Notes under the pieces: generated by a model
Told to the model about the DNA's origin: nothing
Seen by the model: the letters and a program-made list of their open reading frames with translations, nothing else
Database searches by the model: none
Shown: positions 11,459 to 35,902 of the stretch, in pieces
Position numbering within the stretch: position 1 is the stretch's first letter
Layout: every line of letters begins with the position of its first letter
Translations under genes and position numbers: made by a program
Origin: an uncultured Bacteroidia bacterium
Lineage (GTDB): Bacteria; Bacteroidota; Bacteroidia; Bacteroidales; CAJPTX01
Length of the DNA stretch: 53,495 bases
Assembly: GCA_938040915.1 (NCBI GenBank)
Contig: CALHZE010000233.1
Coordinates: 1-53,495 of the forward strand
Direction of reading: 5' to 3'

Positions 11459-11512
11459 CTTTCTCGAACAGTTTCTTTATGAAATTCGGTGTTATACTCC
11501 AATTCAGCTGCG

Positions 11513-11520: not shown

Positions 11521-11950
11521 CGCTTTTTGCCTTGAGTAGATAAGCCCCCAAGGCAAGAAGCCCTAGCGAGAAAACATAGCAAGAAAAACCGCCAGCTCCA
11601 CGCAACGCAACGGCAAAAGTAAAGAATAAAAAGACAACACCCGCCGCGAGGGAATATCTCAAAAAGAGAGGATCAAAGTTTTTGAGACACGCGTCACAAG
11701 AATTAGACGTGTATCAAAACGCTAAAGACTGGCGCATCACGTTGCCCCAGTACCTGTCATTTGTTGGGAAAATCGCACTAGCGTGGCAAAGCCGCACACG
11801 AAAGATCAACCGGCTGATTGAGAAATCAGCAAGGCGACGCCACCCTGCGCCACGAGTTACAGGCGCTCCTACGCGGACGAGCGGGCGCAATGTGTGGTAA
11901 TAGGATGCTCACACCGCCGACACGTGCCGCGTCGAGTTGAGACTTACCCC

Positions 11951-12385: not shown

Positions 12386-12393
12386 GATGCTAG

Positions 12394-12744: not shown

Positions 12745-12756
12745 AACAAGAGGCGT

Positions 12757-13683: not shown

Positions 13684-13739
13684 TGTTACGTTACGCTACT
13701 GTTTACTTTTTCCAGCAAGAAATAGAAAGCTTGCTAGCA

Positions 13740-13747
13740 CAAATGTA
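13740..13747 (-). promoter_or_regulatory. -7 promoter box (TACATTTG on minus strand) for the USP / TM / TerB trio
   Basis: TAnnTTTG match 57 nt upstream of ATG 13683, inside the 124-nt gap after the cyclase gene. Confidence 0.4.
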
Positions 13748-13807
13748 CTCATTTTCCACACAAGAACGACACAGAAGCGCGCCTTAGTACGCCCCCCCTC
13801 CATCGGG

Positions 13808-15283: not shown

Positions 15284-15310
15284 AACGAATCGTTGTTAGA
15301 GATATTCGGC

Positions 15311-16477: not shown

Positions 16478-16510
16478 CTCGTCTCTATGAGCGATGAGCA
16501 ACGCGCGCCC

Positions 16511-18220: not shown

Positions 18221-18265
18221 TCTGTTTGGAGAGGTTGGGGTCAGGAGTGTTGATCGCGACGCCTT

Positions 18266-19660: not shown

Positions 19661-19703
19661 CTGTCTTTCTACGGTTTTAGGTGATTGTTTGAGGTTGTTG
19701 GGA

Positions 19704-19711
19704 CAAAGGTA
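19704..19711 (-). promoter_or_regulatory. -7 promoter box (TACCTTTG on minus strand) for fumC
   Basis: TAnnTTTG match 44 nt upstream of ATG 19660. Confidence 0.4.
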
Positions 19712-19860
19712 AGAAATTTTAGGGGGGCGCTAAGAGGAGAGGCTGTGTGCAATTTTCTGTTCCCCTTAGAGGCGTAACACGCTATGCCGATCCCCTCGAC
19801 CATTCAGATTGTCTTTCCCTGCCACGCTCGTTGAAAATATATGGTGTGCGCCCGTAGCAT

Positions 19861-20070
19861 CTTTAGAAACTCCTAATTCTCTTTTTAAGGCGATAATCAA
19901 AAGAGTCACCAACGGAAATAAATGAAGTCGTCTAAAAATAGCGAAATGGGGGGCGTTTTTAGGGTAGGTAATTGCCCTAGGGAAGCCCTAGGGGAGCCCT
20001 AGCGCCTCCCTAGCAGCGCCCGTTGCGCAAGCACGCAGCACCGTACGAGGGTAAAGGAATTAAGGAAAAC
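19861..20070 (+). repeat. Copy A of a ~210-bp dispersed non-coding repeat (inverted partner at 41781-41999)
   Basis: Manual alignment with the reverse complement of 41781-41999. Shared blocks are CTTTAG.AA, TTTAAG..GATAAT.AAAAGA, TCGTCTAAAAA, a CCCTAG/CCCTAC-rich segment, and a 52-nt core (20019-20070 vs 41835-41784) with 45/52 identical positions. Confidence 0.75.
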
Positions 20071-20106
20071 GTAAAAACAAAAAGAGCCGCCCATATAGGC
20101 GGCTCT
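20071..20106 (-). terminator. Rho-independent terminator of pheS
   Basis: AGAGCCGCC (20083-20091) pairs with GGCGGCTCT (20098-20106). On the minus strand it is followed by TTTTGTTTTTAC, 20 nt after the pheS stop. Confidence 0.65.
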
Positions 20107-20126
20107 AAGGGCTCGCGACAAGCTCG

Positions 20127-21152
20127 CTATTCGTTGGTAAACTGCGATAGGAACTTGAGGTCGTTTTCAAAGAAGAGGCGGATGTCTTTAATGCCATACT
20201 TAAGCATTGCCATCCGCTCGATGCCCATCCCGAAGGCATAACCCGAGTAGACGTTGGGGTCGATACCACACGAGGCGAGGACGTTGGGGTCGACCATTCC
20301 ACAACCGAGGATCTCTAAAAAACCGGTTTGTTTGCAGACGTTACACCCCTTGCCTCCACAGAGGAAACAACTGATATCCATCTCTGCCGAGGGCTCGGTA
20401 AAAGGGAAGTAGGAGGGACGGAAGCGAATCTTGGTATCGACCCCGAAAATGCGGTGGACGAAGTAGAGAAGTACCTGTTGCAGGTCTGCAAAAGAGACCC
20501 CCTTGTCAACATAGAGCCCCTCGATCTGGTGAAACTGGCAGTGGGAACGCGCCGAGATGTCCTCATTGCGAAAGACCCGCCCTGGGCAAATAACCCGAAT
20601 CGGGGGTTTCTGCTGCTCCATGACGCGCACCTGTACCGAGGAAGTGTGTGTCCGCAATAGGACATCGGGGTCTCGCTCCACAAAGAAGGTGTCTTGCATA
20701 TCGCGCGCAGGATGCTCGGGCGGGAAATTGAGGGCTGAGAAAACATGCCAATCATCTTCGAGCTCAGGCCCTTGCTGAACAGAGAAGCCGATGGAACGGA
20801 AACACTCCTCGATCTCACGCTGCAGCAGCGCCAAGGGGTGATGTCCGCCAAAGGGGTGCGCATGGGGCGTGCGGGTGAGGTCGAGGTGCGCAGCACTGTC
20901 GGTCTTCTGACTCACGAGCGCCTCTTGCAAAGCATTAAAATGCTCTTGTGCCAACTGCTTTAACTGATTGATAGCAACGCCGAGCGCCTTCTTATCCTCA
21001 GGCGGGAGTTTCTTAAACTCGTCAAAGAGGGCAGGGATCTTACCGTTGCGCCCAAGGTAGGCAATGCGGAAGGCTTCGAGGTCTTGGGGCGTGGTGGGGT
21101 GTTGCGCTTCTATTTCCTGCGTAAGGGAGCGGATAGTTTCTAACATAGACAT
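20127..21152 (-). CDS. pheS: Phenylalanine--tRNA ligase alpha subunit
   Basis: 341 aa. Class II aaRS motifs: HPARDMQDTF, FRNE, YFPFTEPSAE, GFAFGMGIERMAML. Confidence 0.95.
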   Translation of the reverse strand: MSMLETIRSLTQEIEAQHPTTPQDLEAFRIAYLGRNGKIPALFDEFKKLPPEDKKALGVAINQLKQLAQEHFNALQEALVSQKTDSAAHLDLTRTPHAHPFGGHHPLALLQREIEECFRSIGFSVQQGPELEDDWHVFSALNFPPEHPARDMQDTFFVERDPDVLLRTHTSSVQVRVMEQQKPPIRVICPGRVFRNEDISARSHCQFHQIEGLYVDKGVSFADLQQVLLYFVHRIFGVDTKIRFRPSYFPFTEPSAEMDISCFLCGGKGCNVCKQTGFLEILGCGMVDPNVLASCGIDPNVYSGYAFGMGIERMAMLKYGIKDIRLFFENDLKFLSQFTNE

Positions 21153-21164
21153 CGCGCTTTGGGT

Positions 21165-22013
21165 TTACTTACCTAAGTTTTTAGGAGTATTGAGAATGGT
21201 CATCTTGTTGATAGTAACGCGATTCTTGGGGACATCGCCCGCCGCGGTCTCTACTGCCGCAATGGCATCAACCACGTCAATCCCCTCGATAACCTGCCCA
21301 AAGACGGTGTATTCGTTGTCAAGGTGTGGTGTTCCCCCGACGGTGGTATAGACTTGGCGCGCCTCGGGGGAAAAGTGAAACTCGTCGATGTGGCGGAGCT
21401 CTACCATCATAAGCGAGTCAAAAATCTTACGCATATCCTCTTGGTTCATCCCCTCCTTGACAAGGGTAGTGCGTTGCTCAGAGAAGTGTTGCATGGCGAG
21501 CTGTGCGGCACGGTTTTGCGTCATCCGCATCTCCATTTGCTCCATCTGCTCAGGGGTATAGACCGTCCCCTGCACAATATAGAACTGCGACCCCGACGAA
21601 CGCTTTTCTGGATTGGCTTGATCGCCCATGCGGGCAGCAGCGAGCGCCCCCTTACGATGGAGCTTGCCGGCGACGAACTCAGCAGGGACAGTATAACCAG
21701 GGTCACCCGTGCCCAGCATTTTCGTAGAATTGGGGTCTTTGGTGTTGGGGTCGCCCGTCTGGATCATAAAGTCTTTGATAACGCGGTGGAAAGAGACCCC
21801 GTCGTAGAAGTGTTGGTTGACGAGCTTGACGAAGTTATCGCGATGGAGCGGTGTGTCATTATCAAGCGTCACGACAATGTCGCCCATCGAGGTCTCCATC
21901 TTGACCACATACTGATCTTTTGGGTATTTCTTAGAGGCTGCACATCCACCGAAGGGCATCGCCAGCAGGGCAACGCCGAGGGCGATAAAAGAGAAACAAG
22001 TAAGACGATTCAT
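21165..22013 (-). CDS. Cyclophilin-type peptidyl-prolyl isomerase, probable lipoprotein, with an internal insertion
   Basis: 282 aa. Lipobox-like MPFGG-C; FHRVIKDFMIQTGDP, GALAAARMG, SQFYIVQG .. YTVFGQVIEGIDVVD. About 75 extra residues sit between the last two blocks compared with E. coli PpiB as I recall it. Confidence 0.85.
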   Translation of the reverse strand: MNRLTCFSFIALGVALLAMPFGGCAASKKYPKDQYVVKMETSMGDIVVTLDNDTPLHRDNFVKLVNQHFYDGVSFHRVIKDFMIQTGDPNTKDPNSTKMLGTGDPGYTVPAEFVAGKLHRKGALAAARMGDQANPEKRSSGSQFYIVQGTVYTPEQMEQMEMRMTQNRAAQLAMQHFSEQRTTLVKEGMNQEDMRKIFDSLMMVELRHIDEFHFSPEARQVYTTVGGTPHLDNEYTVFGQVIEGIDVVDAIAAVETAAGDVPKNRVTINKMTILNTPKNLGK

Positions 22014-22019
22014 ATTTGT

Positions 22020-22027
22020 TACCTTTG
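22020..22027 (+). promoter_or_regulatory. -7 promoter box (TACCTTTG) for the patatin-like gene
   Basis: TAnnTTTG match 28 nt upstream of ATG 22056. Confidence 0.35.
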
Positions 22028-22055
22028 TTAGCTACTGCTAAGATAGGGTATTTTG

Positions 22056-24401
22056 ATGGCACAAAGAGAAGGTTTGGGCTGGCACAGGTGCGCTTTTTGG
22101 TTATTGCTCGTTCTTAGCCTTCTTATTACTAATAGGCTAACGGCTCAAAGTGTAGGGCTAGCATTAAGTGGAGGAGGCGCGAAAGGGCTGGCGCATATCG
22201 GGGTGCTGAAGGCTCTAGAAGAACATGAGATCCCTATAGACTATGTTTCAGGGACCTCGATCGGCTCAATCGTCGGGATGCTCTACTGTGTGGGGTACTC
22301 GCCCGAGGAGATGATCGATATATTTAAGTCCCCAGAGTTTAAGGAGTGGCGTAATGGGGAGATACCAGAGAAGTATAAATATTACATCCGTCAGTATGCC
22401 AATGATCAGCGGATGTTGACCGTGTCGGTAAAAAAGGAAGAGCGAGACTCGGTCTTTAAGCTGGTCTTCCCTTCCCACCTACTCAATACCTCGCAAATGG
22501 ATTTGGCGTTTATGCGCTTTACAGCTGCGCCGAGCGGAATGGCAGGGCAAGACTTTAACCAACTCTTTCGTCCGTTTCGGTGCGTGGCGAGTGACGTATT
22601 TCACAAACGCGCGAAAGTCTTTCGTCGCGGCGACTTAGGGCAATCGGTGCGCGCGAGCATGACCTACCCCTTCCTCTTCCAATGTCAGGAGATTGACGAT
22701 GTGCTCTATTTTGACGGGGGGCTCTATAACAATTACCCGTGGAATGTGTTGCGCGACGACTTTCATCCGGAAGTAATCTTGGGAAGTAACGTTTCTGGGC
22801 TAAGCTCGCCCCCGACGAAGAACGACCTGTTAGGGCAAATCGAAATGCTGGTCATGAACCCAACCGACTATGCGTTGCCAGACTCGGTAGGAATATCAAT
22901 CAACATCCACTTTACCGACGTGGGGATTCTTGATTTTAACAAGTGCGACTCTTTAGTGTCAACGGGTTACACCCAAACCATCGCTTTAATGCCCGAGATC
23001 AAAGCACGGATAACGCGCCGCTATCCTCACGACTCACTGGTCGAGTCGCGGCGGAAGTATCGCGAGTCACTCCCTCAGCTGGTCTTTTCGCGCAACACGA
23101 CGGTAAGGGGCGTAAATCGGAAGCAGGAACGGTATATCGTAAAAGCGATCGACAAGACGCGGAACGCCTTTTCCTTCCAATCGTTTGAAGAGGAGTATTA
23201 TAAACACCTAGCTGATTGTAATATAGACCGAATTTTCCCGAAGGCTAATTATAACCCCTATACCCACCTCTTTCAGCTTGACCTGACGGTCGATCGCGCC
23301 CATCCGCTCGACTTATCGTTTGGCGGCAATATATCGAGCCGGAACTTAAGCAACATATTCCTAGGGATTGACTATAAAATCTTTTCCAACTTCTCAGCAC
23401 GGGCTTTTGCATACGGCACGATCGGTCACCTCTACTCTAATGCACAGCTAGGGTGGCGGCAAGACTTTCCGACCGCGATACCGTTTTACTACACCCTCGG
23501 CTACTCGTTTTCACGCTATGACTATCACACGACCTCGCCCATCGCGATCTTCGAAGACACCCGCCCCCCGTATGTAAAGATCAAGGACAACTATGTCTAT
23601 GGGCTGTTTGGCTTTCCGAGTTCGTTTAACTCACAGTGCAACATTATGGTACACGGTGGGGTGCGGATAGACAATTACTACCAAGGGATGCACTTTTTGC
23701 GCAACGACATCCCTGACGAGACCCTCACCCAGTACCTTTACGTGGGGAGCGAACTCCACCGGATGACGCTTAATTACAAGCAATTCCCCACGAAGGGACT
23801 CAAGTGGTTTTTACGCGCGGGCTTTTATGTGATGAGAGAGAATCATACGCCAGGGACGACCTCTATAATGAAACAGCAATTGAGCAATCGTCACCTTTGG
23901 TATAACATACACGGGTATTATGAAAACTACTTGCCCGTGGTGGGTGATTATGTCACGATGGGGGTGATGGGCGAGACAATGGCGATGTTAAAAGAGGCGT
24001 ATCGGAACTACACCTCTGATCTCCTGATGACCCCCAGCTTCTCACCTTCGTTCGCCACGCGCTCGATATTTATTTCACACCTTCACTCGCCGCTTTACTT
24101 AGCTGGGGGGCTTATGCCGACCTTTCAGATCTACCCCAACCTCTATCTCCAGGGGCGCGCGTTTGGATACCTGCCTATTTATAACTTGCGCGCCAACAGT
24201 GAACTCAAGAGCGTGTATGAGCTGAGCTTCCGAGAATATTACTTTTTTGGCGAGTTACACCTGTTTTACCAGACCTTGATCGGTCCAGTCAGTTTCTCGG
24301 TCTCCTACTTGCCCAATTGGCAAGCCAATCGGGTAGATAACTTCCTTGTAAGCGTAAACTTAGGGTATAGTATCTTTAACAATACAGGGCTACGATTTTA
24401 G
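22056..24401 (+). CDS. Patatin-like phospholipase fused to an Omp85-like beta-barrel region
   Basis: Has GLALSGGGAKGLAHIGVLKALEE (oxyanion GGGxxG), GTSIGS (GxSxG nucleophile), and DGG. The long C-terminal half is aromatic- and Gly-rich and ends ..NNTGLRF. The track start at 22053 is TTG; ATG is at 22056. Confidence 0.8.
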   Translation: MAQREGLGWHRCAFWLLLVLSLLITNRLTAQSVGLALSGGGAKGLAHIGVLKALEEHEIPIDYVSGTSIGSIVGMLYCVGYSPEEMIDIFKSPEFKEWRNGEIPEKYKYYIRQYANDQRMLTVSVKKEERDSVFKLVFPSHLLNTSQMDLAFMRFTAAPSGMAGQDFNQLFRPFRCVASDVFHKRAKVFRRGDLGQSVRASMTYPFLFQCQEIDDVLYFDGGLYNNYPWNVLRDDFHPEVILGSNVSGLSSPPTKNDLLGQIEMLVMNPTDYALPDSVGISINIHFTDVGILDFNKCDSLVSTGYTQTIALMPEIKARITRRYPHDSLVESRRKYRESLPQLVFSRNTTVRGVNRKQERYIVKAIDKTRNAFSFQSFEEEYYKHLADCNIDRIFPKANYNPYTHLFQLDLTVDRAHPLDLSFGGNISSRNLSNIFLGIDYKIFSNFSARAFAYGTIGHLYSNAQLGWRQDFPTAIPFYYTLGYSFSRYDYHTTSPIAIFEDTRPPYVKIKDNYVYGLFGFPSSFNSQCNIMVHGGVRIDNYYQGMHFLRNDIPDETLTQYLYVGSELHRMTLNYKQFPTKGLKWFLRAGFYVMRENHTPGTTSIMKQQLSNRHLWYNIHGYYENYLPVVGDYVTMGVMGETMAMLKEAYRNYTSDLLMTPSFSPSFATRSIFISHLHSPLYLAGGLMPTFQIYPNLYLQGRAFGYLPIYNLRANSELKSVYELSFREYYFFGELHLFYQTLIGPVSFSVSYLPNWQANRVDNFLVSVNLGYSIFNNTGLRF

Positions 24402-24416
24402 AGACTCTGCTGGGGG

Positions 24417-25877
24417 ATGGGCATACTTCGTAAATTGGCAAGCCAATCGGCTATCTATGGGCTGAGTAGTGTAGTACCTCGGTTGCTCAACTACTTTTTG
24501 GTGAGCCTTCACTCTCGAGTCTTTAACGAGGGGGAGTATGGGGTGATCACCGAGCTGTATGCGTATGTGGCGGTGCTATTGATCTTGCTGACCTTTGGTT
24601 TGGAGACGGGTTTCTTCCGGTTTGCGGGCAAGAAAGAGAGCCCTGCGACGGGCGATCGGGTCTTCAGCACAATATTTTACTTTTTGGGCGCGACGAGCCT
24701 GAGCTTCTTTGGGTTAGGTTGGCTACTGCTTAGCCCGATAGCCGATCTCTTAAACTATCAGGGGAGCGAAAGTCTGCTGCTAATGATGTTTGCCATTTTG
24801 GCAATTGACGCGTGGAGCGCCCCGCTGTTTAACCGACTGCGGTGGCAAGAGCGCCCCAAAGCCTATAGCGCGATCAAGATCCTCTCGGTGCTGGTTAATA
24901 TCGGTTTCAATGTGCTGTTCTTGGTGGGTTACCCTTACCTCGGGTGGTATGACCCATCGTTTGGTGTGGGGTATGTGCTCTTGAGTAACCTCTTGGGGAG
25001 TGGTGTGGCGTGGTTGCTCGCCTTTTTTGCCTGTGGTGGGCTACCGCGGGTATTCCGCTGGAAGATCTTGACCCCTATTTTAGCCTTCTCGTTCCCACTC
25101 TTGTTAAGCGGTCTGGCGGGAACAACCAACGAGTTTATGGATCGTCTCTTCATCAAATGGCTCACCCCTGCGGCAGACCCGATGAGTGAACTGGGGATTT
25201 ATGGCGCCAACGGTAAAATCGCCGTGCTCTTGGTGTTGTGTGTGCAGATGTTTAAGTTCGCTGCCGAACCCTTCTTCTTTTCGAGTGCTGACGAAAAGAA
25301 CGACCCGAGGGTGTATGCGATGGTCACGAAATATTTCTGGTACTTTACCCTCCTCGTCTTGGTGGGGATTATGTTTTACCTTCCCTTGTTCCAGTTCTTC
25401 ATCGGTCGGAGCTTTCGGACGGGGCTTGGGGTCATCCCCATCCTACTGGTAGCAAACTTGTTATACGGTCTCTTTTTCAATGTAAGCTTTTGGTATAAAC
25501 TCCAGAAGCGAACGTGGTATGGGGTATTGTTTACCGTAACGGGCGCGGTGGTAACCCTCGGTGTCAACCTGCTCTTAACCCCGATGCTCAGCTATTATGG
25601 CGCGGCTTGGGCACGGGTGGCAAGTTACTTAGTGATGTGTGTGGTGTGTGTATGGATCGGGCGTCGTTACTTTCCTGTCCCGTATGAGTATCGGAAGTTC
25701 TTCGTTTCGTTGCTCTTGGGTCTTTCGTTTCTAGGGCTCGGGAGCTTACTCTCAGACACGGCGTGGTGGCTCATGCTGGGGGTGCGCTCGTTACTGTTAC
25801 TTTTGTTGGTTTATCTGTTTATGAGATTAGAGGGTATATCGCCCTTGAGATTGGTAACATTATGGAGACGAAAGTAA
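24417..25877 (+). CDS. Polysaccharide/oligosaccharide flippase (MOP/Wzx-like, about 12-14 TM segments)
   Basis: 486 aa, polytopic and hydrophobic throughout, with a Wzx/RfbX-like N-terminus ([21 protein letters not shown]). Confidence 0.6.
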
Positions 25878-26302
25878 AAATCGTACTAAAGGTAGGGGCT
25901 CAACTCCCGAGCTATATGACGCCAGGGAGTGCTGGGGCAGATCTTTTCGCTCATCTAGAAAAGCCGTTAACAGTGTCGCCGATGGGCGGGGTAGTTGCCG
26001 TGCCGACGGGGGTCTCTATAGAGCTCCCGATTGGGTTTGAGGCTCAGATTCGCCCACGGAGTGGTTTGGCAAAAAAGCACGCAGTGACGGTCTTAAATGC
26101 ACCAGGGACGATCGATAGTGACTATCGGGGCGAGATTATCGTTCTACTGATCAACCACGGCAGAGAGTCTTACACCATAGCGCCACAAGAACGAATCGCG
26201 CAGATGGTGATCGCCCCCGTGACAAGAGCCGTGTGGGAAGAGGTAGAGACATTGGAAGAGACCATACGTAACAGACAAGGATTTGGACATACAGGAAAAT
26301 GA
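25862..26302 (+). CDS. dut: dUTP diphosphatase
   Basis: The track ORF 25763..26302 overlaps the flippase; the in-frame ATG 25862 (METKVKIV..) gives the usual ~146 aa. Motifs: [31 protein letters not shown]. Confidence 0.9.
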
Positions 26303-28068
26303 AGCTAGTGAAGCTATGGGGTATCCTACTTGGCGTAGGGGCAGTGTTATGGGGCGTGGGGTGTGCGACACACCCAAAGACAACGACCCCGAAGTTTGAG
26401 AAGGAGGTCGGTAATCCGTACTTTGATAGTTACTACCTTTTCCTGACCGACACCACAGAGGCGCTATTACCACGCCTGCGTGCAAAGTTTGCCCAATCGC
26501 AATCGCCCGAAATAAGCGACCTTATCGCCCAAGTATTTTACCGGAATGGTAGGTTAGACTCGGCGCAAGCCTATATAGAACGATCTTACCGACTTGACTC
26601 AAACAACGTCGACTATGCGAAGAGGTATTACGCGATATTAGAGGAGCAACAAAAAGACCCCGCGCGCCTAGTCTATCTTGCCGATCGGTTGATATCGCTA
26701 GACAGCGGGGATGCGAAGAACCAGTACTCACTTCTCATGGCTTACATCCGAGACAACCGCATTGGGGAGGCAATACGCTATGGTCGCTCGCGCCAAGAGT
26801 TCTTCCGCCGCTACTTCGAAATCGATCAAATGCTCATCAACCTCTACTTGCAATCGCAGATGCCTGATTCGGCGATGCGTGTGGCAGAGGAGCTTATCGC
26901 GCAAGACCCCAGCGAGTCAAATAGTTATTTCGTAGCCTCGACGGTTGCCGCGCGCAGTAACGACACCTTGAACTACAAACGCTATTTCAAGCAAGGGGTG
27001 AAATATGGATGCCCGAACGAGTTGTTAGTTGAGGCTTATGCGCAGTATTTGCTCATAGAGCAACGCAACCCGCGCGAGTTGCTAGGGACTCTCGATACCA
27101 TCTTTGAGCGCTGCCACTACCCCGAGTCATGGCTTGTGGAAATGCTCTCCAACCTCCGTTTTGTCTTCACCTCACCACGGATGAGTGACCCCACAGAGCG
27201 CCACCTCCTCTCAAGCTTTGAGAGACAATTATCCCACTCGTCAGAAGGGCAGTTTGTCCTCTTACAATATTACCGACGTAATTTCGACACCGCAGCGGCC
27301 TTAGCTTTGATAGCGCGCAACCAAAAGACGTTTGCACCGAGCTACATATGGGACATGATTTATGTGAGCGAGAGCTTAAAATTCCGCCCCAAACCGAGAG
27401 TAAGCCACTGGGGCGAAGAAACACGGGTAGCGCGTGAAAACATTACAAAATACCCTTTTGATCTTTTTTCTGCTTATGTCTATTTCGAGTGGGTGGGTGA
27501 GGCGACCGACTCTGTGCGACGCATCGACACGGTCGATCACTACATAGGTTACTATAAGGAGCTCTTGCGCCAAGCAAAGAAAGACGAGGTCTATCGGTTT
27601 GAACTCACCTTTGGCAAAGACACGACCGTGCAGCGCATCCCCATCTTGCTCGCCAACCTATCGCGCCTCTATGGGTATAAGGGGGATGTGAGTCGAAAAG
27701 ATCAAAAGGCGTTCGAAGCATACAAAGAAGCGTTGAAATATAACCCCTCTAACGAAGTGGCGCTGAATAACTATGCCTATAATCTGGCGCTGGTCGATGC
27801 GAAGCAGCTCAAGCGCGCCCTCAAGATGTCGGAAAAGAGTTTGACGATAGACCCTAATAACGAAAACTACTTAGACACGTATGGCTATATCCTCTATCGC
27901 TTAGGACGTTATAAGGAAGCTAAAGCGGTATTCACAAAGCTATTATCGATCAATCCGCGTCCGGGTGCGACCTCGCTCCTACACTATAGCGCACTATTAG
28001 AGGCGCTGGGGAATAAGGATGCGGCAGAGGTCTACCGTATGAAGGCAACACAAGCCGAAAGCGAGTAG
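26299..28068 (+). CDS. TPR-repeat lipoprotein
   Basis: 589 aa with lipobox VLWGVG-C. TPR-like helices occur especially at the C-terminus ([44 protein letters not shown]). The start overlaps the dut stop (ATGA). Confidence 0.55.
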
Positions 28069-28098
28069 AGGAAAAGGAAAAGATTAACTAACAAGAGG

Positions 28099-29286
28099 AT
28101 GACGCTCAAGAGTTTGATTCGTTGGCTGGTATACGGAGTCCTTTTCTTGATCTCCAACGCGAGTGTGGCACAAAAGCTCGTAGATCTGCAACGACAAAAG
28201 GCTCAGACCTTGGAGCGGATATCCACCACCTCGCTCCTTATCGAAGAAGGGAGCAAATCGCAAGCACAAAACACGCGCAAGCTAGATCTCTTGACGGCAC
28301 AAATAGAGACCCGTAACGACCTGATCAAGAATATCAATCAGCAAATCGAACTCTACAACCGAGAGATCTCTCATCGGGTACGGAACATCACACAACACGA
28401 GCGCGAACGCGACACGCTTTTAAGCCAATATGCGCAGTTCGTCAAGCGGACACAGTTTCTTCAAGGTCGTAATGAGGTACTCCTCCAGATATTGGCGTCA
28501 AAGAACCTCTCGCAGATGTATCGACGCATTCGGTTCTACCGCGAATATTTGCAATATCAACACTCACAACACGACACAATCGTGGCATTAAACCAAAGGC
28601 TACAAGGCGAACGCGACTCGCTAGTGGGGGCACAAAAGCGCTTAGTAGGGCTAAGAAACGAAGAGTATGCCTCTCGTAACCAACTTCTTTCAGAACAAGA
28701 ACTCTACAACAAAGAGCTGCAGCGCCTCCTGCAACAGGAAAAGGCGTGGAAAAACACGTTGCTAGAAGATCAAAAGAAAGTGAGAGAGCTCAACGTGGCG
28801 ATCAATAAACTCTTAGAGGAGGAGGCTGAGCAGAACCGCAAAGCCAAACACGACGCCCAGTATAAAAAACTTGGCAAGGATTTTGCTAGCAACAAGGGAA
28901 AGTTGCCTTGGCCCATCTTAACAGGGTCAATCATACGAGGGTATGGACAGCAAGAGAGCAAACTCCTCAAGGGGATCAAAACGACGAGCGAGGGGGTAGA
29001 TATTGCCGCCCAAAAGAACTCGGTGGTGCGGAGCGTGTTTAACGGTAAGGTTACCAAGGTCGCGCACATCCCAGGGGGTAATGACGTAGTGATCATCCGC
29101 CACGGGGAGTTTCTTACCCTCTACTCCAACTTGGTCAACTTGGTGGTGAGCACGGGCGATGAGGTCAAGGCGGGGCAGACGCTCGGGACGGTCTATACGG
29201 AGAAAAACGCCGTGCAAGGGACACTACACTTTGAAATATGGAAGGAGTTCCGTTCTCAAAACCCAAAAGTCTGGCTTCACCCATAG
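28099..29286 (+). CDS. Coiled-coil M23/LytM peptidase (EnvC-like murein hydrolase activator)
   Basis: 395 aa with a signal peptide and a long Q/E/R/L-rich coiled coil. The C-terminal LytM domain shows GVDIAA, VIIRHGEFLTLYSNL, GQTLGTV, LHFEIW. Confidence 0.8.
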   Translation: MTLKSLIRWLVYGVLFLISNASVAQKLVDLQRQKAQTLERISTTSLLIEEGSKSQAQNTRKLDLLTAQIETRNDLIKNINQQIELYNREISHRVRNITQHERERDTLLSQYAQFVKRTQFLQGRNEVLLQILASKNLSQMYRRIRFYREYLQYQHSQHDTIVALNQRLQGERDSLVGAQKRLVGLRNEEYASRNQLLSEQELYNKELQRLLQQEKAWKNTLLEDQKKVRELNVAINKLLEEEAEQNRKAKHDAQYKKLGKDFASNKGKLPWPILTGSIIRGYGQQESKLLKGIKTTSEGVDIAAQKNSVVRSVFNGKVTKVAHIPGGNDVVIIRHGEFLTLYSNLVNLVVSTGDEVKAGQTLGTVYTEKNAVQGTLHFEIWKEFRSQNPKVWLHP

Positions 29287-29417
29287 CTTATTTTCCTATT
29301 CTGGGAGATGAACGAGCGAAGGATAAACAACAGAGTGACTGTCGTCCGCTCATAAAGGGGCAGCAGGACTAGGTAAAATTACTCATTCTTGATTTAGAGA
29401 AATAGAAGAAAATAGCC

Positions 29418-29425
29418 TAACTTTG
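29418..29425 (+). promoter_or_regulatory. -7 promoter box (TAACTTTG) upstream of the kinase-ybeY-mnmG block
   Basis: TAnnTTTG match 84 nt upstream of ATG 29509. Confidence 0.3.
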
Positions 29426-29508
29426 ATTAGGAAATAGCTACTCCTCCTTCTATAGAGGAGAAATGTAGCGGTCGGATTTTTAGGAGAGACACAATATACA
29501 CGATACCG

Positions 29509-29907
29509 ATGGAGAGAATAGTCTTAGCGTCGACAGAGACAGCCAGTAACGAGCTCTTAGAGTTCTTGGATCGGCTGTTCATGAATGTTGACGGTTTGGC
29601 AGACCTCGAGGCGAATGTACAAGTTGCCATCTGCGAAACCTTCAATAACGCTGTGGTGCATGGCAACAAGCTAGATTTTAGAAAGCGCGTGACCTGCACC
29701 TTCGATATCACCGACACTGCCTTCGTCTTTACGATAGAAGATGAGGGAGAGGGGTTTGAGATTGAGAAGATCCCCGACCCGACGCTTCCTGAGAATATAG
29801 AAAAAACGCGTGGAAGGGGGGTATTTCTCACACAAAAGCTCTCAAGTAAGGTAGAATACCTAGATAAGGGGCGAAGAGTGATTATCAGCTTTTATAAAAA
29901 GAAATAG
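29509..29907 (+). CDS. RsbW/SpoIIAB-like HATPase (anti-sigma-factor-type serine kinase)
   Basis: 132 aa. N-box ICETFNNAVVHGN, G1 IEDEGEGF, G2 TRGRGVFL. Confidence 0.65.
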   Translation: MERIVLASTETASNELLEFLDRLFMNVDGLADLEANVQVAICETFNNAVVHGNKLDFRKRVTCTFDITDTAFVFTIEDEGEGFEIEKIPDPTLPENIEKTRGRGVFLTQKLSSKVEYLDKGRRVIISFYKKK

Positions 29908-29915
29908 GGGGTATT

Positions 29916-30344
29916 TTGAGTATCTTATTCCACACCCTGGGGGTTCGTTACCTTTTACGCCACAAACGCGAGATTCGCGCCACGGTAAAGCTCATGTGTG
30001 AGAGCAAGGGCTATCGCGTGGGAGAGGTCAACTACATCCTCTGCTCTAAGCGCGTGATCAAGGAAACTAATATCCGCTACCTCGATCACCATTACTACAC
30101 CGACATCATTACCTTCCCGATGTCTGAGGAAGCGGGGGTCGTGAGTGCCGACATCTACGTCTGTGTCCCCGTCGTATTTGAAAATGCCGTGCATTTCAAG
30201 ACGTCTGCCTACACCGAGTTGATACGGGTGCTCTTTCACGGCATATTACATTTGATCGGGTACGACGATCACACGCCCGAAGATCAGCGCGCCATGCGCG
30301 CTGCCGAGGAGGAGTGGCTCGGAAAATTCGCGGAAATGCTATAA
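29916..30344 (+). CDS. ybeY: rRNA maturation endoribonuclease YbeY
   Basis: 142 aa with the zinc motif HGILHLIGYDDH. TTG start. Confidence 0.9.
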   Translation: MSILFHTLGVRYLLRHKREIRATVKLMCESKGYRVGEVNYILCSKRVIKETNIRYLDHHYYTDIITFPMSEEAGVVSADIYVCVPVVFENAVHFKTSAYTELIRVLFHGILHLIGYDDHTPEDQRAMRAAEEEWLGKFAEML

Positions 30345-30362
30345 AAGCACTTTCTTTGCTTC

Positions 30363-32279
30363 ATGGAACGAAGCAGAGACATCATCGTAATTGGCGGCGG
30401 ACACGCGGGTTGCGAAGCCGCCTTGGCAGCGGCTAGTTTGGGCGTCAATACGCTCCTTATTACAACCGACATTACCAAGCTAGGTGTAATGAGTTGTAAC
30501 CCCTCAATCGGGGGGATTGGTAAAGGGCAGATCGTGCGCGAGATAGATGCCCTCGGGGGCTTTACCGCACAGTGTACGGATCTTACCACCCTTCAATTTC
30601 GGATGCTCAACCGCTCTAAGGGAGCAGCTATGCATAGCCCTAGGGCACAGTGTGACCGCGATCTCTTTAGTCTCACGTGGCGGAGAAAGTTAGAGGGGGC
30701 GACCAACCTAGCGATCATTCAAGACACAATTGAGGAACTCTTGTTAGAGGAACATGAAGGGAAGACGCTGTGTGTAGGCGTAAGATCAAAATTGCGCGGC
30801 GATATAGTCGCCCAACGCGTGATACTTACCGCCGGTACCTTCCTTAACGGACTCATCCACGTGGGGATGTATCACACCCCAGGAGGTCGCATCGATGAGA
30901 GCGCCGTGCCACGCCTCACCGCACAGTTAGTAGCTCACGGCATAAAAGCCGCACGATTCAAGACAGGCACTTCGCCGCGGATCGATCTCCGGACGATAGA
31001 TTTAGACGTCTGTCGCATACAGGCGGGAGACATCGAAGGAGGACACTTTTCCTACTCCACCACGTGCCCTTCCCCCCTCCCCCAACGCCCGTGCTATATC
31101 ACAGAGACGAACCCAGAGACCCACGCGATCTTACGCGCCAATCTCAATCGCTCCCCCCTTTTTCAACACGTGATACAGGGACGCGGACCGCGCTACTGCC
31201 CTAGTATCGAAGATAAGATTCACATTTTCGCAGACAAAGGCTCACACCCCATATTCCTAGAGCCAGAGGATAGCGAAGGCAACACCGTCTACATCAATGG
31301 ATTTAGCACCTCGCTTCCGTATGATGTGCAAGAGGTGGGGCTTCACTCAATACGCGGTTTAGAGGAGGCACACATCATCCGTCCAGGCTATGCGATCGAG
31401 TATGACTATTTTGACCCCTTGCAATTGGAACATAGTTTAGCCTCGAAGGTAATCAGGGGGCTCTACATCGCGGGTCAGCTCAACGGCACAACGGGGTATG
31501 AAGAGGCTGCCGCACAAGGACTATTAGCAGGGATCAATGCCGCACACACCTTGCTCGGGCGCACGCCCATTGTCTTGCGGCGCTCAGAGGCTTATATAGG
31601 TGTGATGATTGACGACCTCGTCACCAAGGGAGTAGACGAACCCTACCGGATGTTTACCAGTCGCGCTGAGCACCGTCTTTCGCTTAGAGAAGACAACGCA
31701 GACGAACGTCTTTACCAGCTATCTGTAGCGATTGGGTTACGGAGCAAGGAAGCTTTAGAAAAAACGGCGACAAAATATGAAACTGTAACCGCCTTGGCGC
31801 ACTACCTGACACAACTTTCGCTCACGCCCGAAATGGTGAATGAATACCTCTTAGCACAGGGGGGCACTCCCCTCCCCCAAGCCATCAAAGCGCATAAACT
31901 TCTTTTACGTCCCGAAGTTAAACTAGCGTCACTGCTTCCCCATATTCCCACCACAGCATTTGACAAAAGCACACTCTCTGCAGAGATAGTCCACAGCGCC
32001 GAGACGCGCATCAAGTATGCTAGCTACATAGAGAAAGAGGAACAGGAGAGTGAACAAACGTTGAAGATAGACACTATACACATCCCCGACACGCTAGACT
32101 ACACAACCCTAGAGAGTATTAGCATTGAGGGAAGACAGAAACTCCGTCAACACCGCCCCAAGACCTTAGGAGAGGCAAAACAGATACCCGGCATCAAACC
32201 TAGTGACCTAAAGGCGATCTTGATAGCGATGCGTTCGTTTGTTCCACGTGGAACAGTGGAAGGGACAGAGGATAAATAA
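30363..32279 (+). CDS. mnmG: tRNA uridine 5-carboxymethylaminomethyl modification enzyme MnmG (GidA)
   Basis: 638 aa. FAD motif IVIGGGHAGCEAA, then SCNPSIGGIGKGQIVREIDALGG, GPRYCPSIEDK, GQLNGTTGYEEAAAQG. The last 13 codons overlap parS site 1. Confidence 0.95.
   Translation: MERSRDIIVIGGGHAGCEAALAAASLGVNTLLITTDITKLGVMSCNPSIGGIGKGQIVREIDALGGFTAQCTDLTTLQFRMLNRSKGAAMHSPRAQCDRDLFSLTWRRKLEGATNLAIIQDTIEELLLEEHEGKTLCVGVRSKLRGDIVAQRVILTAGTFLNGLIHVGMYHTPGGRIDESAVPRLTAQLVAHGIKAARFKTGTSPRIDLRTIDLDVCRIQAGDIEGGHFSYSTTCPSPLPQRPCYITETNPETHAILRANLNRSPLFQHVIQGRGPRYCPSIEDKIHIFADKGSHPIFLEPEDSEGNTVYINGFSTSLPYDVQEVGLHSIRGLEEAHIIRPGYAIEYDYFDPLQLEHSLASKVIRGLYIAGQLNGTTGYEEAAAQGLLAGINAAHTLLGRTPIVLRRSEAYIGVMIDDLVTKGVDEPYRMFTSRAEHRLSLREDNADERLYQLSVAIGLRSKEALEKTATKYETVTALAHYLTQLSLTPEMVNEYLLAQGGTPLPQAIKAHKLLLRPEVKLASLLPHIPTTAFDKSTLSAEIVHSAETRIKYASYIEKEEQESEQTLKIDTIHIPDTLDYTTLESISIEGRQKLRQHRPKTLGEAKQIPGIKPSDLKAILIAMRSFVPRGTVEGTEDK
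32240..32255. promoter_or_regulatory. parS: parS-type ParB binding site 1 (TGTTCCACGTGGAACA), inside the 3' end of mnmG
   Basis: Perfect 16-bp palindrome matching the TGTTNCACGTGAAACA parS family, with a symmetric G/C change. Confidence 0.75.
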
Positions 32280-32292
32280 AGTTTCCCCCCTT

Positions 32293-32308
32293 TGTTCCAC
32301 GTGAAACA
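32293..32308. promoter_or_regulatory. parS: parS-type site 2 (TGTTCCACGTGAAACA)
   Basis: Identical to the B. subtilis Spo0J parS sequence as I recall it. Confidence 0.75.
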
Positions 32309-32337
32309 AGAAAGGTGTGAGTAAAATAAATAGAGGT

Positions 32338-32353
32338 TGTTCCACGTGGAACA
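32338..32353. promoter_or_regulatory. parS: parS-type site 3 (TGTTCCACGTGGAACA)
   Basis: Perfect 16-bp palindrome. Confidence 0.75.
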
Positions 32354-32555
32354 AAGGAAGGTATCAGAACCTCAAATAACGAGGGCATTACATTCTCCTT
32401 CCCTACACAACCACCTTTTAACGATTAAGGTCTCTAGAAAGGCGTATCTCTATACTACGCTACAGAAGATAGGAGTAAGAGTTTACTACTTATCTGATAA
32501 AAAAATGAGTGGCACTGAAACAAGAGGAAGGGTGGGGAAAATAAGGCATAAAATC

Positions 32556-32571
32556 TGTTCCACGTGGAACG
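32556..32571. promoter_or_regulatory. parS: parS-type site 4 (TGTTCCACGTGGAACG)
   Basis: 15 of 16 positions match the majority form. Confidence 0.65.
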
Positions 32572-32602
32572 AAGGGAAACAGAAAGGATAGATAAGAAAA
32601 CG

Positions 32603-32618
32603 TGTTCCACGTGGAACA
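32603..32618. promoter_or_regulatory. parS: parS-type site 5 (TGTTCCACGTGGAACA), 24 nt upstream of the uvrC ATG
   Basis: Perfect 16-bp palindrome. Confidence 0.75.
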
Positions 32619-32641
32619 GCGTTAAACGAAAATAAGCGGGG

Positions 32642-34459
32642 ATGGAACTCAAAGACGAACGCTATGCGGGGATTAAGGAAACCGTACAAATGCTCCCCCA
32701 CGTACCTGGAGTATATGTCTACAAGAATGCACAGAAAAAGATTATCTACATTGGGAAGGCTAAAGACCTACATAAACGCGTGCAGTCTTACTTCACCAAC
32801 ATAGAGCGACATAATGCCAAGACGCGGATACTGGTCAATCAGATAGCGTTTATCGATTTCATCATCGTCAATACCGAGGAGGAGGCCTTCTTGTTAGAAA
32901 ACAACCTTATCAAGAAGAACCAACCAAAGTATAACATCCTGCTCAAAGACGACAAGTCTTACCCTTGGGTCTGTATTACCAAAGAGGAATACCCGAGGGT
33001 ATTTCTAACACGCAACTACATTCCACGGAGAGGGAAATATTACGGTCCCTATCCCTCGGGCGGAGCAATTGATTCGGTACTCGCCACCCTACGTCAACTC
33101 TTTTTCTACCGAACCTGTAAAATGCCCATGACGCAAGCGTGGGTAGAGGCGCGAAGATATCGCGCCTGCTTAGAATACCACATCCACAACTGTCAGGGAC
33201 CGTGTATCAATGCCATTAGTAAGGCAGAGTATAACCGCGCTATAGAGAATATCGGCAATATTTTGAGTGGTAAGGTAGGGAGTGTCATTGCCACCTTACA
33301 ACGAGAGTATCGCGAGGCTCTCGAGCACCTTCACTTTGAGAAAGCCGAGGTGCTCAACAAGCAAATCGAAGCCCTGCAAGATTACCAGAGTAAGAATAGT
33401 GTCTTAAACCCCGAGGTGGGCGATTTAGATGTGATTACCATCCTCGAGCGCGAGGATCGCGTAGCGCTCAACTATATGCATATTTACAACGGTGCCGTCG
33501 TCCTCTCTATCAATCGCATCGTATCAAACCCACTTGGTAACTCATTAGAGGAGCTCTTAGAGACGGTCGTCTACCGACTCAAGGAGGAGTTTGGCAGCGA
33601 AGCCTCTACCCTGTTATGCAACCTAGCGCTCCCCTCCCCTATTCCTCCCTACAAGCAAGTAGAGTTACCACAGCGTGGCGATAAGCACAAAGTTCTTTTA
33701 CTCTCGACACTCAACACCGAGCGCTATCTTGAGCAAACCACAGCGCGCAGACAACTCCCCACCGAAGAGGCAATGTTGCAACTCCAGCGCCTCTTAAAAC
33801 TCCCCCGTCTGCCTCGCCACATAGAGTGTATAGACAACTCTAATACGCTGGGGACTTACCCCGTCTCCGCAGTGGTAGTCTTCATCGATGGGAAGCCGGC
33901 TAAAGAGCTTTACCGGATCTATAACGTAAAGACCGTTGAGGGACCTAATGATTACGCTACCATGGAAGAGATCATCACACGGCGTTACGAAGAAATGCCA
34001 TCCGAGGAGCTTCCAGACCTTTTGGTGATAGATGGAGGAAAGGGGCAACTGAGTTCCGTACAAGACGCACTGATGCGTATAGAGCGCATCACCGACATTC
34101 CGCTCGTAGGGCTCGCTGAGCGTATGGAGGAGCTCTATGTTCCACGTGGAACAGCGCCGATACGGTTGAGTAAAGATGCCCCCAACCTACGCCTCTTGAT
34201 TCAGATGCGTGACGAGGCGCATCGTTTTGGGGTAAAGCACCACACCCACCAGAGAGACAAAGACGTAAAGAACGTCCGGCTATTGGAAGTAAAAGGCGTA
34301 GGGGAAAAGAGCATCCAGAAACTCTATCAACAATTTGGCAGCAGACAAGCCATTCTTTCAGCAGGTCTCGAAGCCATAGAATCTTGCCTAGGAAAGAGTA
34401 AAGCCTCCTTGGTGTGGAAAGCATTAAAGGAAGAAGAAAGAGAGAAGAGAACACCCTAA
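32642..34459 (+). CDS. uvrC: Excinuclease ABC subunit C
   Basis: 605 aa. GIY-YIG domain (PGVYVYKNAQKKIIYIGKAKDLHKRV..N), the UvrC central region, an RNase H/Endo V-like domain (IECIDNSN..), RDEAHRFG, and a C-terminal HhH (VKGVGEKSIQKL). Confidence 0.95.
   Translation: MELKDERYAGIKETVQMLPHVPGVYVYKNAQKKIIYIGKAKDLHKRVQSYFTNIERHNAKTRILVNQIAFIDFIIVNTEEEAFLLENNLIKKNQPKYNILLKDDKSYPWVCITKEEYPRVFLTRNYIPRRGKYYGPYPSGGAIDSVLATLRQLFFYRTCKMPMTQAWVEARRYRACLEYHIHNCQGPCINAISKAEYNRAIENIGNILSGKVGSVIATLQREYREALEHLHFEKAEVLNKQIEALQDYQSKNSVLNPEVGDLDVITILEREDRVALNYMHIYNGAVVLSINRIVSNPLGNSLEELLETVVYRLKEEFGSEASTLLCNLALPSPIPPYKQVELPQRGDKHKVLLLSTLNTERYLEQTTARRQLPTEEAMLQLQRLLKLPRLPRHIECIDNSNTLGTYPVSAVVVFIDGKPAKELYRIYNVKTVEGPNDYATMEEIITRRYEEMPSEELPDLLVIDGGKGQLSSVQDALMRIERITDIPLVGLAERMEELYVPRGTAPIRLSKDAPNLRLLIQMRDEAHRFGVKHHTHQRDKDVKNVRLLEVKGVGEKSIQKLYQQFGSRQAILSAGLEAIESCLGKSKASLVWKALKEEEREKRTP
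34138..34153. promoter_or_regulatory. parS: parS-type site 6 (TGTTCCACGTGGAACA), inside the uvrC coding sequence
   Basis: Perfect 16-bp palindrome, read as Y-V-P-R-G-T-A in the uvrC frame. Confidence 0.7.
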
Positions 34460-34480
34460 GAAGAGACCTCTAACGCCATT

Positions 34481-34541
34481 ATACACAACGCCGCGCGACT
34501 ATAGAGTTTTCACTGCTGTATAGTCGCGCGGCGTTGTGTAT
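34481..34541 (+). terminator. 23-bp perfect-stem hairpin 22 nt after the uvrC stop (terminator-like, no U-tract)
   Basis: ATACACAACGCCGCGCGACTATA (34481-34503) pairs with TATAGTCGCGCGGCGTTGTGTAT (34519-34541), leaving a 15-nt loop. It is followed by CTTTCC rather than a T-run. Confidence 0.45.
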
Positions 34542-34582
34542 CTTTCCAAAGGAGTAACCTTCCCTATATTCTATTTTCTTTT

Positions 34583-34598
34583 TATTCCACGTGGAACA
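34583..34598. promoter_or_regulatory. parS: parS-type site 7 (TATTCCACGTGGAACA)
   Basis: 15 of 16 positions match the majority form. First unit of the tandem array. Confidence 0.65.
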
Positions 34599-34663
34599 CG
34601 TCTTCTCCTTCTTAGTTTCTCATTACTCAGGGTAAAACGATATTCTCTATTTATCTACCTCTT

Positions 34664-34679
34664 TGTTCCACGTGGAACA
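34664..34679. promoter_or_regulatory. parS: parS-type site 8 (TGTTCCACGTGGAACA)
   Basis: Perfect palindrome; second unit. Confidence 0.75.
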
Positions 34680-34745
34680 CGCCTTCGTCCTTCTTAGTTC
34701 CTCATTACTCAAAGTAAAACGACATTCTCTATTTATCTACCTCTT

Positions 34746-34761
34746 TGTTCCACGTGGAACA
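34746..34761. promoter_or_regulatory. parS: parS-type site 9 (TGTTCCACGTGGAACA)
   Basis: Perfect palindrome; third unit. Confidence 0.75.
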
Positions 34762-34826
34762 CGTCTCGTCCTTCTTAGTTTCTCATTACTCAGGGTAAAA
34801 TGATATTCCCTGTTTATCTACCTCTT

Positions 34827-34842
34827 TGTTCCACGTGGAACA
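34827..34842. promoter_or_regulatory. parS: parS-type site 10 (TGTTCCACGTGGAACA)
   Basis: Perfect palindrome that closes the array, 59 nt from the ruvB stop. Confidence 0.75.
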
Positions 34843-34900
34843 TGCATTCGCGCTCTGATAATCCTTGCTCTTTTCTTTCGCTCACATTAAGCACGCAGGG

Positions 34901-35902
34901 CTAGCCCCCCCACAAGCTAGAATAGTCAACTCCAAGGTGTTCGTAAGCAGTCGAGGTTGCAACCCGTCCGCGCGGCGTGCGCTTGAGTAAGCCCTCCATG
35001 ATAAGAAAGGGCTCGTAAACCTCTTCGATCGCCCCCGCATCCTCCCCTACCGCAGTTGCCAAGGTAGAAAGCCCAACAGGTCCCCCGTTAAATTTCGCAA
35101 TAATCGTAGAGAGAATACGACGATCCATCAAGTCTAAACCACGACTATCTATGTTGAGGGCGTCGAGAGCCAAACGCGCAATCTCTAGGTCAATCTCGCC
35201 ATTACCCTTTACTTGCGCAAAATCGCGCACGCGGCGTAATAGCGCATTCGCTATACGCGGCGTCCCACGACTCCGCGCCGCTATCTCTTGCGCGGCTTGC
35301 GTATGTATGGGGATGCGAAGAATCCCTGCCGAACGCTTTAAGATCGCTTGAATCGTCGCATTAGGGTAATACTCTAAAAGACACGAAATGCCAAAGCGCG
35401 CCTTGAGGGGCTTGGTCAGTAACCCCACGCGCGTGGTTGCCCCCACCAAAGTAAACGGATTGAGTTGAAGTTGTACACTCCGCGCCGCAGGACCCTTCTC
35501 TATCATGATATCTATGGTAAAATCTTCCATAGCCGAATAGAGGTACTCTTCCACCACAGGAGCAAGGCGATGGATCTCGTCAATGAAAAAGACTGTCCCT
35601 TTTTCTAAACTCGTAAGTATCCCCGCCAAATCACCAGGACGATCAATGACCGGTCCACTCGTCATCCGTAACGATACCCCGAGCTCGTGGGCTAAAATAT
35701 GTGCCAAAGTAGTTTTGCCTAAACCAGGAGGACCATGAAAGAGCACGTGGTCGAGGGGCTCGCCGCGTAATTTAGCAGCCTCCACAAAAACGTGAAGATT
35801 GTCCATCACTTTACTTTGCCCAGTGAAATCGGCAAAGCTTAACGGACGTATCGAACTCTCGACCTCTTCGCTTTCGTCTTGCCTATACTCGCGATCTGCC
35901 AT
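34901..35902 (-). CDS. ruvB: Holliday junction branch migration ATPase RuvB
   Basis: Walker [10 protein letters not shown], Walker B FIDEIHRL, sensor [23 protein letters not shown]. The track ORF starts at TTG 35932; ATG 35902 (MADREYRQ..) is more likely. Confidence 0.95.

Follow-up and report, generated by a model that had tools for sequence, protein, structure and literature searches.

A copy-number-variable tandem array of parS-type palindromes in a chromosomal parS cluster of an uncultured Bacteroidia lineage

The parS cluster around uvrC

The DNA analysed here (hereafter the window; 53,495 nucleotides from an uncultured Bacteroidia bacterium, GenBank assembly GCA_938040915.1, contig CALHZE010000233.1) carries, between the convergent genes uvrC and ruvB, a short tandem array in which each unit holds one 16-bp palindrome of the parS type, that is, the type of site recognized by the partition protein ParB. 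The array contributes four of the ten parS of a cluster that spans 2.6 kb (32240-34842) and brackets uvrC, a plus-strand gene (32642-34459; Pfam GIY-YIG and UvrC_RNaseH_dom) contained entirely within the cluster. ruvB is found on the minus strand at 34901-35902 (Pfam RuvB_N, E=1.1e-74), its 333-aa product being present on 23 contigs. On the other side of uvrC lies mnmG, also known as gidA (30363-32279, plus strand; Pfam GIDA, E=5.5e-147), whose product has the C-terminal tail ...FVPRGTVEGTEDK directly before the stop and whose last codons hold the first of the ten sites.

The palindrome TGTTCCACGTGGAACA corresponds to the canonical chromosomal ParB site and fits the consensus TGTTNCACGTGAAACA; degenerate parS forms closely related to this consensus were used in a previous study of gut bacteria (PMC10197239) and in the genome scan described below. 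Sites with at most one mismatch to TGTTCCACGTGGAACA number ten in the window against 0.23 expected, a count that none of 100 shuffled sequences reached. Two of them are intragenic. parS-1 (32240-32255, TGTTCCACGTGGAACA) is located within the 3' end of mnmG, and the mnmG-uvrC gap accommodates parS-2 (32293-32308, TGTTCCACGTGAAACA), parS-3 (32338-32353, a perfect palindrome), parS-4 (32556-32571, TGTTCCACGTGGAACG; like parS-3, a motif-scan call) and parS-5 (32603-32618, again a perfect palindrome, 24 bp ahead of the uvrC start codon). The spacing of this upstream five-site group is irregular (53, 45, 218 and 47 bp). parS-6 (34138-34153) is the second intragenic site, lying inside uvrC at codons for residues 500-504 approximately, and parS-7 to parS-10 constitute the array.

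Tandem Repeats Finder (TRF) made a single array call in this region, at 34581-34850, with a period of 81, 3.3 copies, 89% matches and a score of 442. Combined with direct reading of the sequence, this resolves into a first unit of 81 bp (34583-34663) formed by parS-7 (TATTCCACGTGGAACA, one mismatch) and a 65-nt spacer, a second of 82 bp (34664-34745) formed by parS-8 and a 66-nt spacer, and a third of 81 bp (34746-34826) formed by parS-9 and a 65-nt spacer, the whole being closed by parS-10 (34827-34842, also found by the motif scan); the last three palindromes are all perfect copies of TGTTCCACGTGGAACA. These limits are exactly those given by an earlier examination of the DNA made from its letters alone (the sequence-only reading). 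The three spacers share 94-98% identity with a composite unit spacer (blastn), and this likeness, together with the TRF period, means that entire units were duplicated and not the palindromes alone, as that reading had also held. Its statement that the array fills the whole space between the two genes was excessive, since the uvrC-ruvB gap covers 441 bp (34460-34900) and the array occupies 260 bp of it (59%). Two short open reading frames (ORFs), at 34536-34697 and 34663-34803, run across the array units.

Variation of the array within the species

Twenty contigs of the same species were found by means of the exact UvrC and RuvB sequences, and in every one of them the array is present at one and the same locus. 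As these independent assemblies derive from many samples and were produced with several assemblers, an assembly artefact as the origin of the array was ruled out. Among the gap-free contigs, three have two units (L139, L142 and L143), the window and contigs L001/L140, L003, L004, L141, L147 and L148 have three, and L002 has four. Scaffolds L144-L146 present N gaps within longer arrays, and contigs L005-L009 stop inside the array. The number of units, as counted in short-read assemblies, differs therefore between strains, from two to at least four, in agreement with the propensity for copy-number change that had been predicted from the window itself. Contigs L141 and L142, which come from different samples, match without a single substitution along some 4 kb and differ solely by one 82-bp unit; this corresponds either to a very recent insertion or deletion of a single unit or to an assembly collapse. 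Variants of the spacer, such as ..AACGATATTCTCTA.. and ..ATAACATTCCCTG.., do not keep to one position in the array or to one strain but occur in shuffled order, as is to be expected under unequal exchange.

The variation among units was measured on 31 complete units from 12 contigs, 25 of which are distinct. Across the distinct units, mean per-column heterozygosity was 0.014 for parS as opposed to 0.110 for the spacer, an approximately 8-fold difference, with 2 of 16 parS columns being variable compared to 29 of 66 spacer columns (Fisher p=0.023). In addition, no other stretch of 16 columns in the unit is as conserved as parS. Judged by this distribution of substitutions, the palindrome is more strongly constrained than the spacer. 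A short motif of the spacer, GTAAAAC, was also considered as a conserved element and dropped, its 10 matches in the window comparing with 6.3 expected.

Relatives and growth of the cluster

The host belongs to a deep-branching lineage of Bacteroidia that is uncultured and associated with humans. Its contigs derive from human metagenomes, with one sample labelled oral, and one of the more distant relatives is on a human-metagenome scaffold of the Joint Genome Institute (JGI; 65% UvrC identity). The identity of UvrC homologues falls in steps, from 100% to 86% (an NCBI metagenome-assembled genome, MAG, labelled "Bacteroides sp.", here the sister species), then to 65-70%, and finally to 50% or less (Bacteroidia, Flammeovirgaceae). 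The gene order TPR-M23-HATPase-YbeY-mnmG-uvrC><ruvB-HU/SPOR is kept down to 65% UvrC identity, and the relative at 50% still retains mnmG-uvrC><ruvB as a core and has a gene of the HU family on the far side of ruvB. This conserved housekeeping synteny shows that the locus is chromosomal; the contigs bearing it reach 214 kb.

Against this constant gene background the number of sites changes considerably. Relatives at 65-70% UvrC identity have two parS only, one in the mnmG 3' end, at the same place as parS-1, and the other inside uvrC; the 50% relative has four, in and around mnmG. No parS was found in the uvrC-ruvB gap of relatives more distant than the sister species. The sister species presents five parS at the mnmG end and in the following gap, one in uvrC, and either three (L011) or four (L135) in the uvrC-ruvB gap, where they lie 48-54 bp apart; the spacers of these gap sites have about 33-38 nt, are mostly unrelated, and none was called as a repeat by TRF. 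The first three upstream parS align between the window and the sister species, with the intervening DNA having diverged. The 81-bp array is confined to the window species among the relatives compared. Because the relatives have the two intragenic sites, the sister species has more, and the window species alone has the array, it seems from these comparisons that the cluster grew stepwise from two ancient intragenic sites to ten, with the 81-bp array as its newest addition. At its 3' end the array spacer (..TATCTACCTCTT|parS) is similar to one of the spacers of the sister species (..ATATCTACTCCCC|parS), which points to a local and not an imported origin of the array.

The two intragenic sites are informative in another respect. 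Both are read in the same frame and encode Val-Pro-Arg-Gly-Thr (VPRGT). Every relative with a UvrC identity of 65% or more retains the uvrC-internal parS, and parS-1 is likewise retained in the sister species and in the relatives at 65-70%. At the UvrC position, VPRGT is confined to the clade that carries parS, other Bacteroidia having FPGDS, IPGDP or RPKST there. This clade-specific occurrence is an argument for selection acting at the DNA level, and it appears that at the intragenic parS the DNA site dictates the protein sequence.

As a separate observation, the L011 contig of the sister species has direct repeats of about 80 nt (6812-6890 and 7185-7260) with GC-rich hairpin motifs (tgtaggggtgtagcgtgctacaccc...), which flank its three gap parS. 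In strain L135 the left copy alone was noticed by eye, no repeat search having been made. These repeats look like a family of repetitive extragenic palindromic (REP)-like elements in the sister species.

Neighbouring features

The 123 bp that precede the array contain a strong hairpin, positioned directly after the uvrC stop codon (34481-34541, plus strand) and outside the repeat unit. It has 26-nt arms that are 96% complementary and a 9-nt loop, its predicted RNA folding energy is -53.8 kcal/mol (z = -9.65), and it is retained, little altered, in every strain. Probably it functions as the uvrC terminator or as a protective 3' structure. Its identification with a dispersed REP element was rejected, since it occurs as a single copy in the window.

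The other ORFs of the window correspond to housekeeping and envelope genes (aroA, pheS, fumarase, mnmA, a SurA-like gene, YbeY and others). To the left of the window, contig L149 (positions 1-6820) encodes rnpA, HEM4, DUF4271 and DHQ synthase, together with a 1044-aa type ISP restriction-modification enzyme (N6_Mtase and Type_ISP_C); to the right, Big_2 proteins are found. The window itself ends in another tandem repeat (52582-53495; 264 bp, 3.5 copies, 95% identity), which encodes Big_2 (bacterial Ig-like) domains and belongs to a large surface protein that runs past the window end. Homologous contigs encode proteins of 988 and 970 aa.

Tandem parS arrays in other genomes

Species-representative genomes were scanned for triplets of canonical sites (TGTTNCACGTGNAACA) with 40-70 nt between them. 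At least 119 dense parS loci were obtained, distributed among Bacillota, Actinomycetota, Pseudomonadota, Planctomycetota, Acidobacteriota, phyla of the candidate phyla radiation (CPR), Bacteroidota and others. When a tandem array was defined by at least three sites, a period constant within 2 bp and a spacer identity of at least 75%, at least 37 loci (37 of 119 among the matches listed) qualified as such, with up to 15 sites, spacer identities of 75-100%, and periods of 34-84 bp, a distribution that is biased by the search pattern. Chromosomal tandem parS arrays are thus recurrent and not unique to this window.

The ten genes scanned beside eight of these arrays indicated a chromosomal location in all cases, and six of the eight adjoin gyrA/gyrB, rsmG, parA or parB (gyrA/gyrB in four). 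For example, the isolate genome of Heliophilum fasciatum (L049) has five sites with a period of 39 bp between rsmG/gidB and parA, and in L057 six sites with a period of 43 bp are found near parB. Four arrays from MAGs of Bacilli, Erysipelotrichaceae and Tenericutes (L025, L069, L085 and L091) have periods of 82, 64, 84 and 74 bp, respectively, and 4-7 sites, with seven in L069 and six in the Erysipelotrichaceae MAG L085; all four lie immediately beside gyrA, in L085 next to gyrA-gyrB. This suggests a preferred gyrA-side location for tandem parS arrays in those lineages.

Like that of the window, the arrays of other genomes contain a single canonical parS in each unit, keep a constant period and, in the eight cases checked, have chromosomal neighbours. 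They differ from it in their unit sequences, which are unrelated and of independent origin, and in the range of their periods. Moreover, many of them are located beside gyrA, rsmG or parAB, whereas the window array lies between uvrC and ruvB. The literature search yielded no account of tandem parS arrays occurring naturally on chromosomes, and this tandem, copy-number-variable form, widespread in public genomes, is apparently undescribed.

Comparison with known partition systems

Chromosomal parS is usually regarded as a fixed handful of isolated sites. In model organisms such as Bacillus subtilis, Caulobacter crescentus, Corynebacterium glutamicum and Myxococcus xanthus the sites are dispersed singly, with unrelated DNA between them. 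The window differs from this arrangement in that four of its ten sites belong to a recent tandem duplication, in the strain-variable number of units, and in the lack of an adjacent parAB. On sequence criteria, the ten sites can nevertheless be assigned to the known class of chromosomal parS clusters of ParABS systems, as described in gut bacteria including Bacteroidales (PMC10197239), with which they share the same 16-bp palindrome, the presence of several copies within a few kb, the location of some sites within genes, their conservation across related species and, presumably by analogy, the nucleation of ParB-CTP (cytidine triphosphate) clamps.

The sequence-only reading had likened the array to a plasmid centromere. 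In sopC of the F plasmid a 43-bp unit is repeated directly 12 times, and every copy holds a 16-bp inverted repeat to which SopB binds (PMC3177203). Both systems are built of head-to-tail repeats with exactly one ParB-family palindrome per unit, the DNA between sites being part of the repeated unit, and this portion of the comparison stands. The remainder does not, because the array is not self-contained, comprises four of the ten parS of a larger non-tandem cluster and has no adjacent parAB. Relative to sopC, the window array is chromosomal, is not preceded directly by genes of the sopAB type, has a unit nearly twice as long and is present in 2-4 copies instead of 12. Its palindrome, furthermore, is the Spo0J-type chromosomal parS and not the sopC motif. 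The likeness to sopC is one of layout only. The recognition of a ParB-type palindrome on a chromosome was well founded, given the canonical site and the housekeeping synteny, and what lost force is the opposition that had been drawn to typical chromosomal parS, in view of the 37 tandem cases among the 119 matches listed.

A model for the origin and role of the array

We consider it probable, reasoning largely by analogy with characterized ParABS systems, that the locus is a chromosomal ParB-loading cluster that grew through slippage or unequal exchange involving adjacent parS, the spacer having been carried along mostly as a passenger. The array would be the youngest part of the partition centromere of this chromosome, made of ten predicted ParB-loading sites around uvrC. 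From established ParABS biology, each palindrome is expected to bind a ParB dimer, which on binding CTP would close into a clamp and slide onto the flanking DNA, leaving the site free for reloading. Ten sites in 2.6 kb may in this way multiply the rate of clamp loading and the local density of ParB, to the benefit of ParA and of whatever condensin-like system the lineage has. In vitro, the ParB-dependent condensation force was shown to increase with the number of parS, with 5-7 sites being required in the assay (PMC8299390), and Hi-C maps of gut bacteria including Bacteroidales revealed that parS clusters coincide with the origin domain (PMC10197239).

The mutational side of the model follows from the nature of the sites. 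Since the sites are palindromic, any two adjacent parS amount to a perfect direct repeat of 16 bp, and replication slippage or unequal exchange between them could duplicate or delete a block formed by parS and spacer. Such a duplication would have created the 81-82-bp units, and the same process would keep altering their number. Selection would act on the palindromes, and probably also on how many there are, with the spacer seemingly conserved only through recent duplication and continuing exchange among units. Slippage or unequal exchange would explain the strict period, the shuffled spacer variants and the single-unit difference between otherwise identical contigs, as well as the repeated independent origin of such arrays elsewhere.

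Several observations weigh against this interpretation. The spacer blocks TCATTACTCA and TTTATCTACC are nearly invariant across the 25 distinct units. The units were counted in metagenome assemblies of short reads, a type of assembly in which tandem repeats may be collapsed. The period of 81-82 bp corresponds to 7.7-7.8 helical turns per unit, and same-face phasing consequently offers no simple case for a selected spacing. No ParA, ParB or DnaA gene was detected with Pfam in the 53-kb window (about 30 ORFs) or in about 7 kb beyond each of its ends, and the cognate ParB is therefore assumed; ParABS homologues have been reported in Bacteroidales (PMC10197239). Finally, as regards a proximity of the cluster to the origin, the window has no DnaA-box cluster (11 matches versus 8.2 expected) and its GC skew is ambiguous.

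Some further features relate to the position of the origin. The cumulative GC skew passes through a local minimum at around 17-20 kb, and the ORFs, which run on the minus strand at 3691-22013 and on the plus strand at 22053-34459, switch orientation across a 40-bp gap (approximately 22013-22053). As there is no DnaA-box cluster, neither the switch nor the skew minimum constitutes evidence for oriC. In many bacteria rnpA and mnmG belong classically to the origin region, and the presence of rnpA a few kb to the left of the window, in addition to the linkage to mnmG, gives a weak hint of origin proximity.

Alternative explanations

An alternative to passive amplification is that the layout itself is selected, with a functional spacer that would bind a second protein, bend the DNA or set the distance for clamp loading, the array being then a composite centromere module as in some plasmids. 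The almost invariant spacer blocks agree with this proposal, as do the strict 81-82-bp period in all strains and the recurrence, in many genomes, of tandem parS arrays with well-conserved spacers. A recent duplication of units, however, automatically yields a constant period, and in other genomes the periods are spread over 34-84 bp. The 8-fold higher diversity of the spacer relative to parS, the short and mostly unrelated spacers that separate the 3-4 sites of the sister species in the very same gap, and the irregular spacing of the upstream five-site group all count against a selected layout, and the spacer has no significant RNA fold (z = -0.44 for the plus strand and -0.55 for the minus strand). 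On balance, selection of the layout is unlikely.

It could also be conceived that the palindromes serve a role unrelated to ParB, either as operators for another CACGTG-binding regulator or as bidirectional terminators of uvrC and ruvB. Each palindrome can form a hairpin, several of them are flagged with T-rich tails by a terminator scan, and the array is suitably placed between convergent genes. Yet the 16-mer equals the canonical parS in ten copies with at most one mismatch, and two copies conserved across species reside within coding sequence, a place in which termination would do harm. A far stronger hairpin already follows uvrC, no Rfam family was found in the window, and no tRNA either. 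The motif also clusters beside parA, parB, rsmG and gyrA/gyrB in unrelated phyla. A function of this kind is accordingly given very little credit.

Even less plausible is that the 81-bp unit is an interspersed mobile element, REP-like or similar to miniature inverted-repeat transposable elements (MITE), which happens to carry a parS-like palindrome. The many assemblies that break within the array would be in keeping with a dispersed repeat, and so would the direct repeats of roughly 80 nt that flank the gap parS triplet in one strain of the sister species. In the 53.5-kb window and all same-species contigs, however, the spacer matches the array alone (blastn), the array is invariably at the same locus, and its spacer partly resembles local sequence of the sister species. 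The spacer core CTTCTTARTTYCTYATTACTCARRGTAAA had no matches in 185,579 species-representative genomes or in 241 million JGI metagenome records. The UvrC of the window species was recorded only in Logan and European Nucleotide Archive (ENA) assemblies, and its own genome is probably absent from the genome collection scanned, which leaves the genome-wide uniqueness of the spacer unproven. A plasmid or phage origin was discarded, the whole gap being without match in plasmid and phage collections. The genome-wide dispersed repeat that the sequence-only reading had pointed to as its main rival was, within these bounds, not encountered.

Lastly, the regularly spaced palindromic repeats and the short ORFs crossing units could suggest a CRISPR-like (clustered regularly interspaced short palindromic repeats) array or a coding repeat, and an assembly artefact might also be supposed. 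All three can be practically dismissed, considering that the spacers are conserved and not unique, that the repeat has 16 bp only, that no cas-type Pfam family occurs among the roughly 30 window ORFs of at least 150 aa, that the 82-bp unit disrupts the reading frame and the unit number is variable, and that independent assemblies show the array again.

Implications

The basic understanding of ParABS is unchanged by these results. What they add is the case of a cluster that appears to have expanded from two to about ten sites within one small Bacteroidia clade, and whose newest part changes its number of units between co-circulating strains. If confirmed, the strains would constitute a natural dose series (two, three, four or more units) for relating parS number to ParB loading and segregation, and the array would provide a simple mutational mechanism for the expansion of parS clusters. 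It would also serve as a warning that arrays of this type break short-read assemblies near the centromere.

A broader and more tentative proposal, which we regard as possible without favouring it, is that tandem "parS satellites" represent a general and fast-evolving way to tune the strength of bacterial centromeres. Slippage would repeatedly seed such arrays, selection for ParB loading would retain them, and the number of units would be polymorphic within species. Were this true, the same phenomenon would be seen in the window species, with two to at least four units, and in the at least 37 arrays that arose independently in other phyla, and parS satellites would stand as a prokaryotic parallel to the satellite arrays of centromeres.

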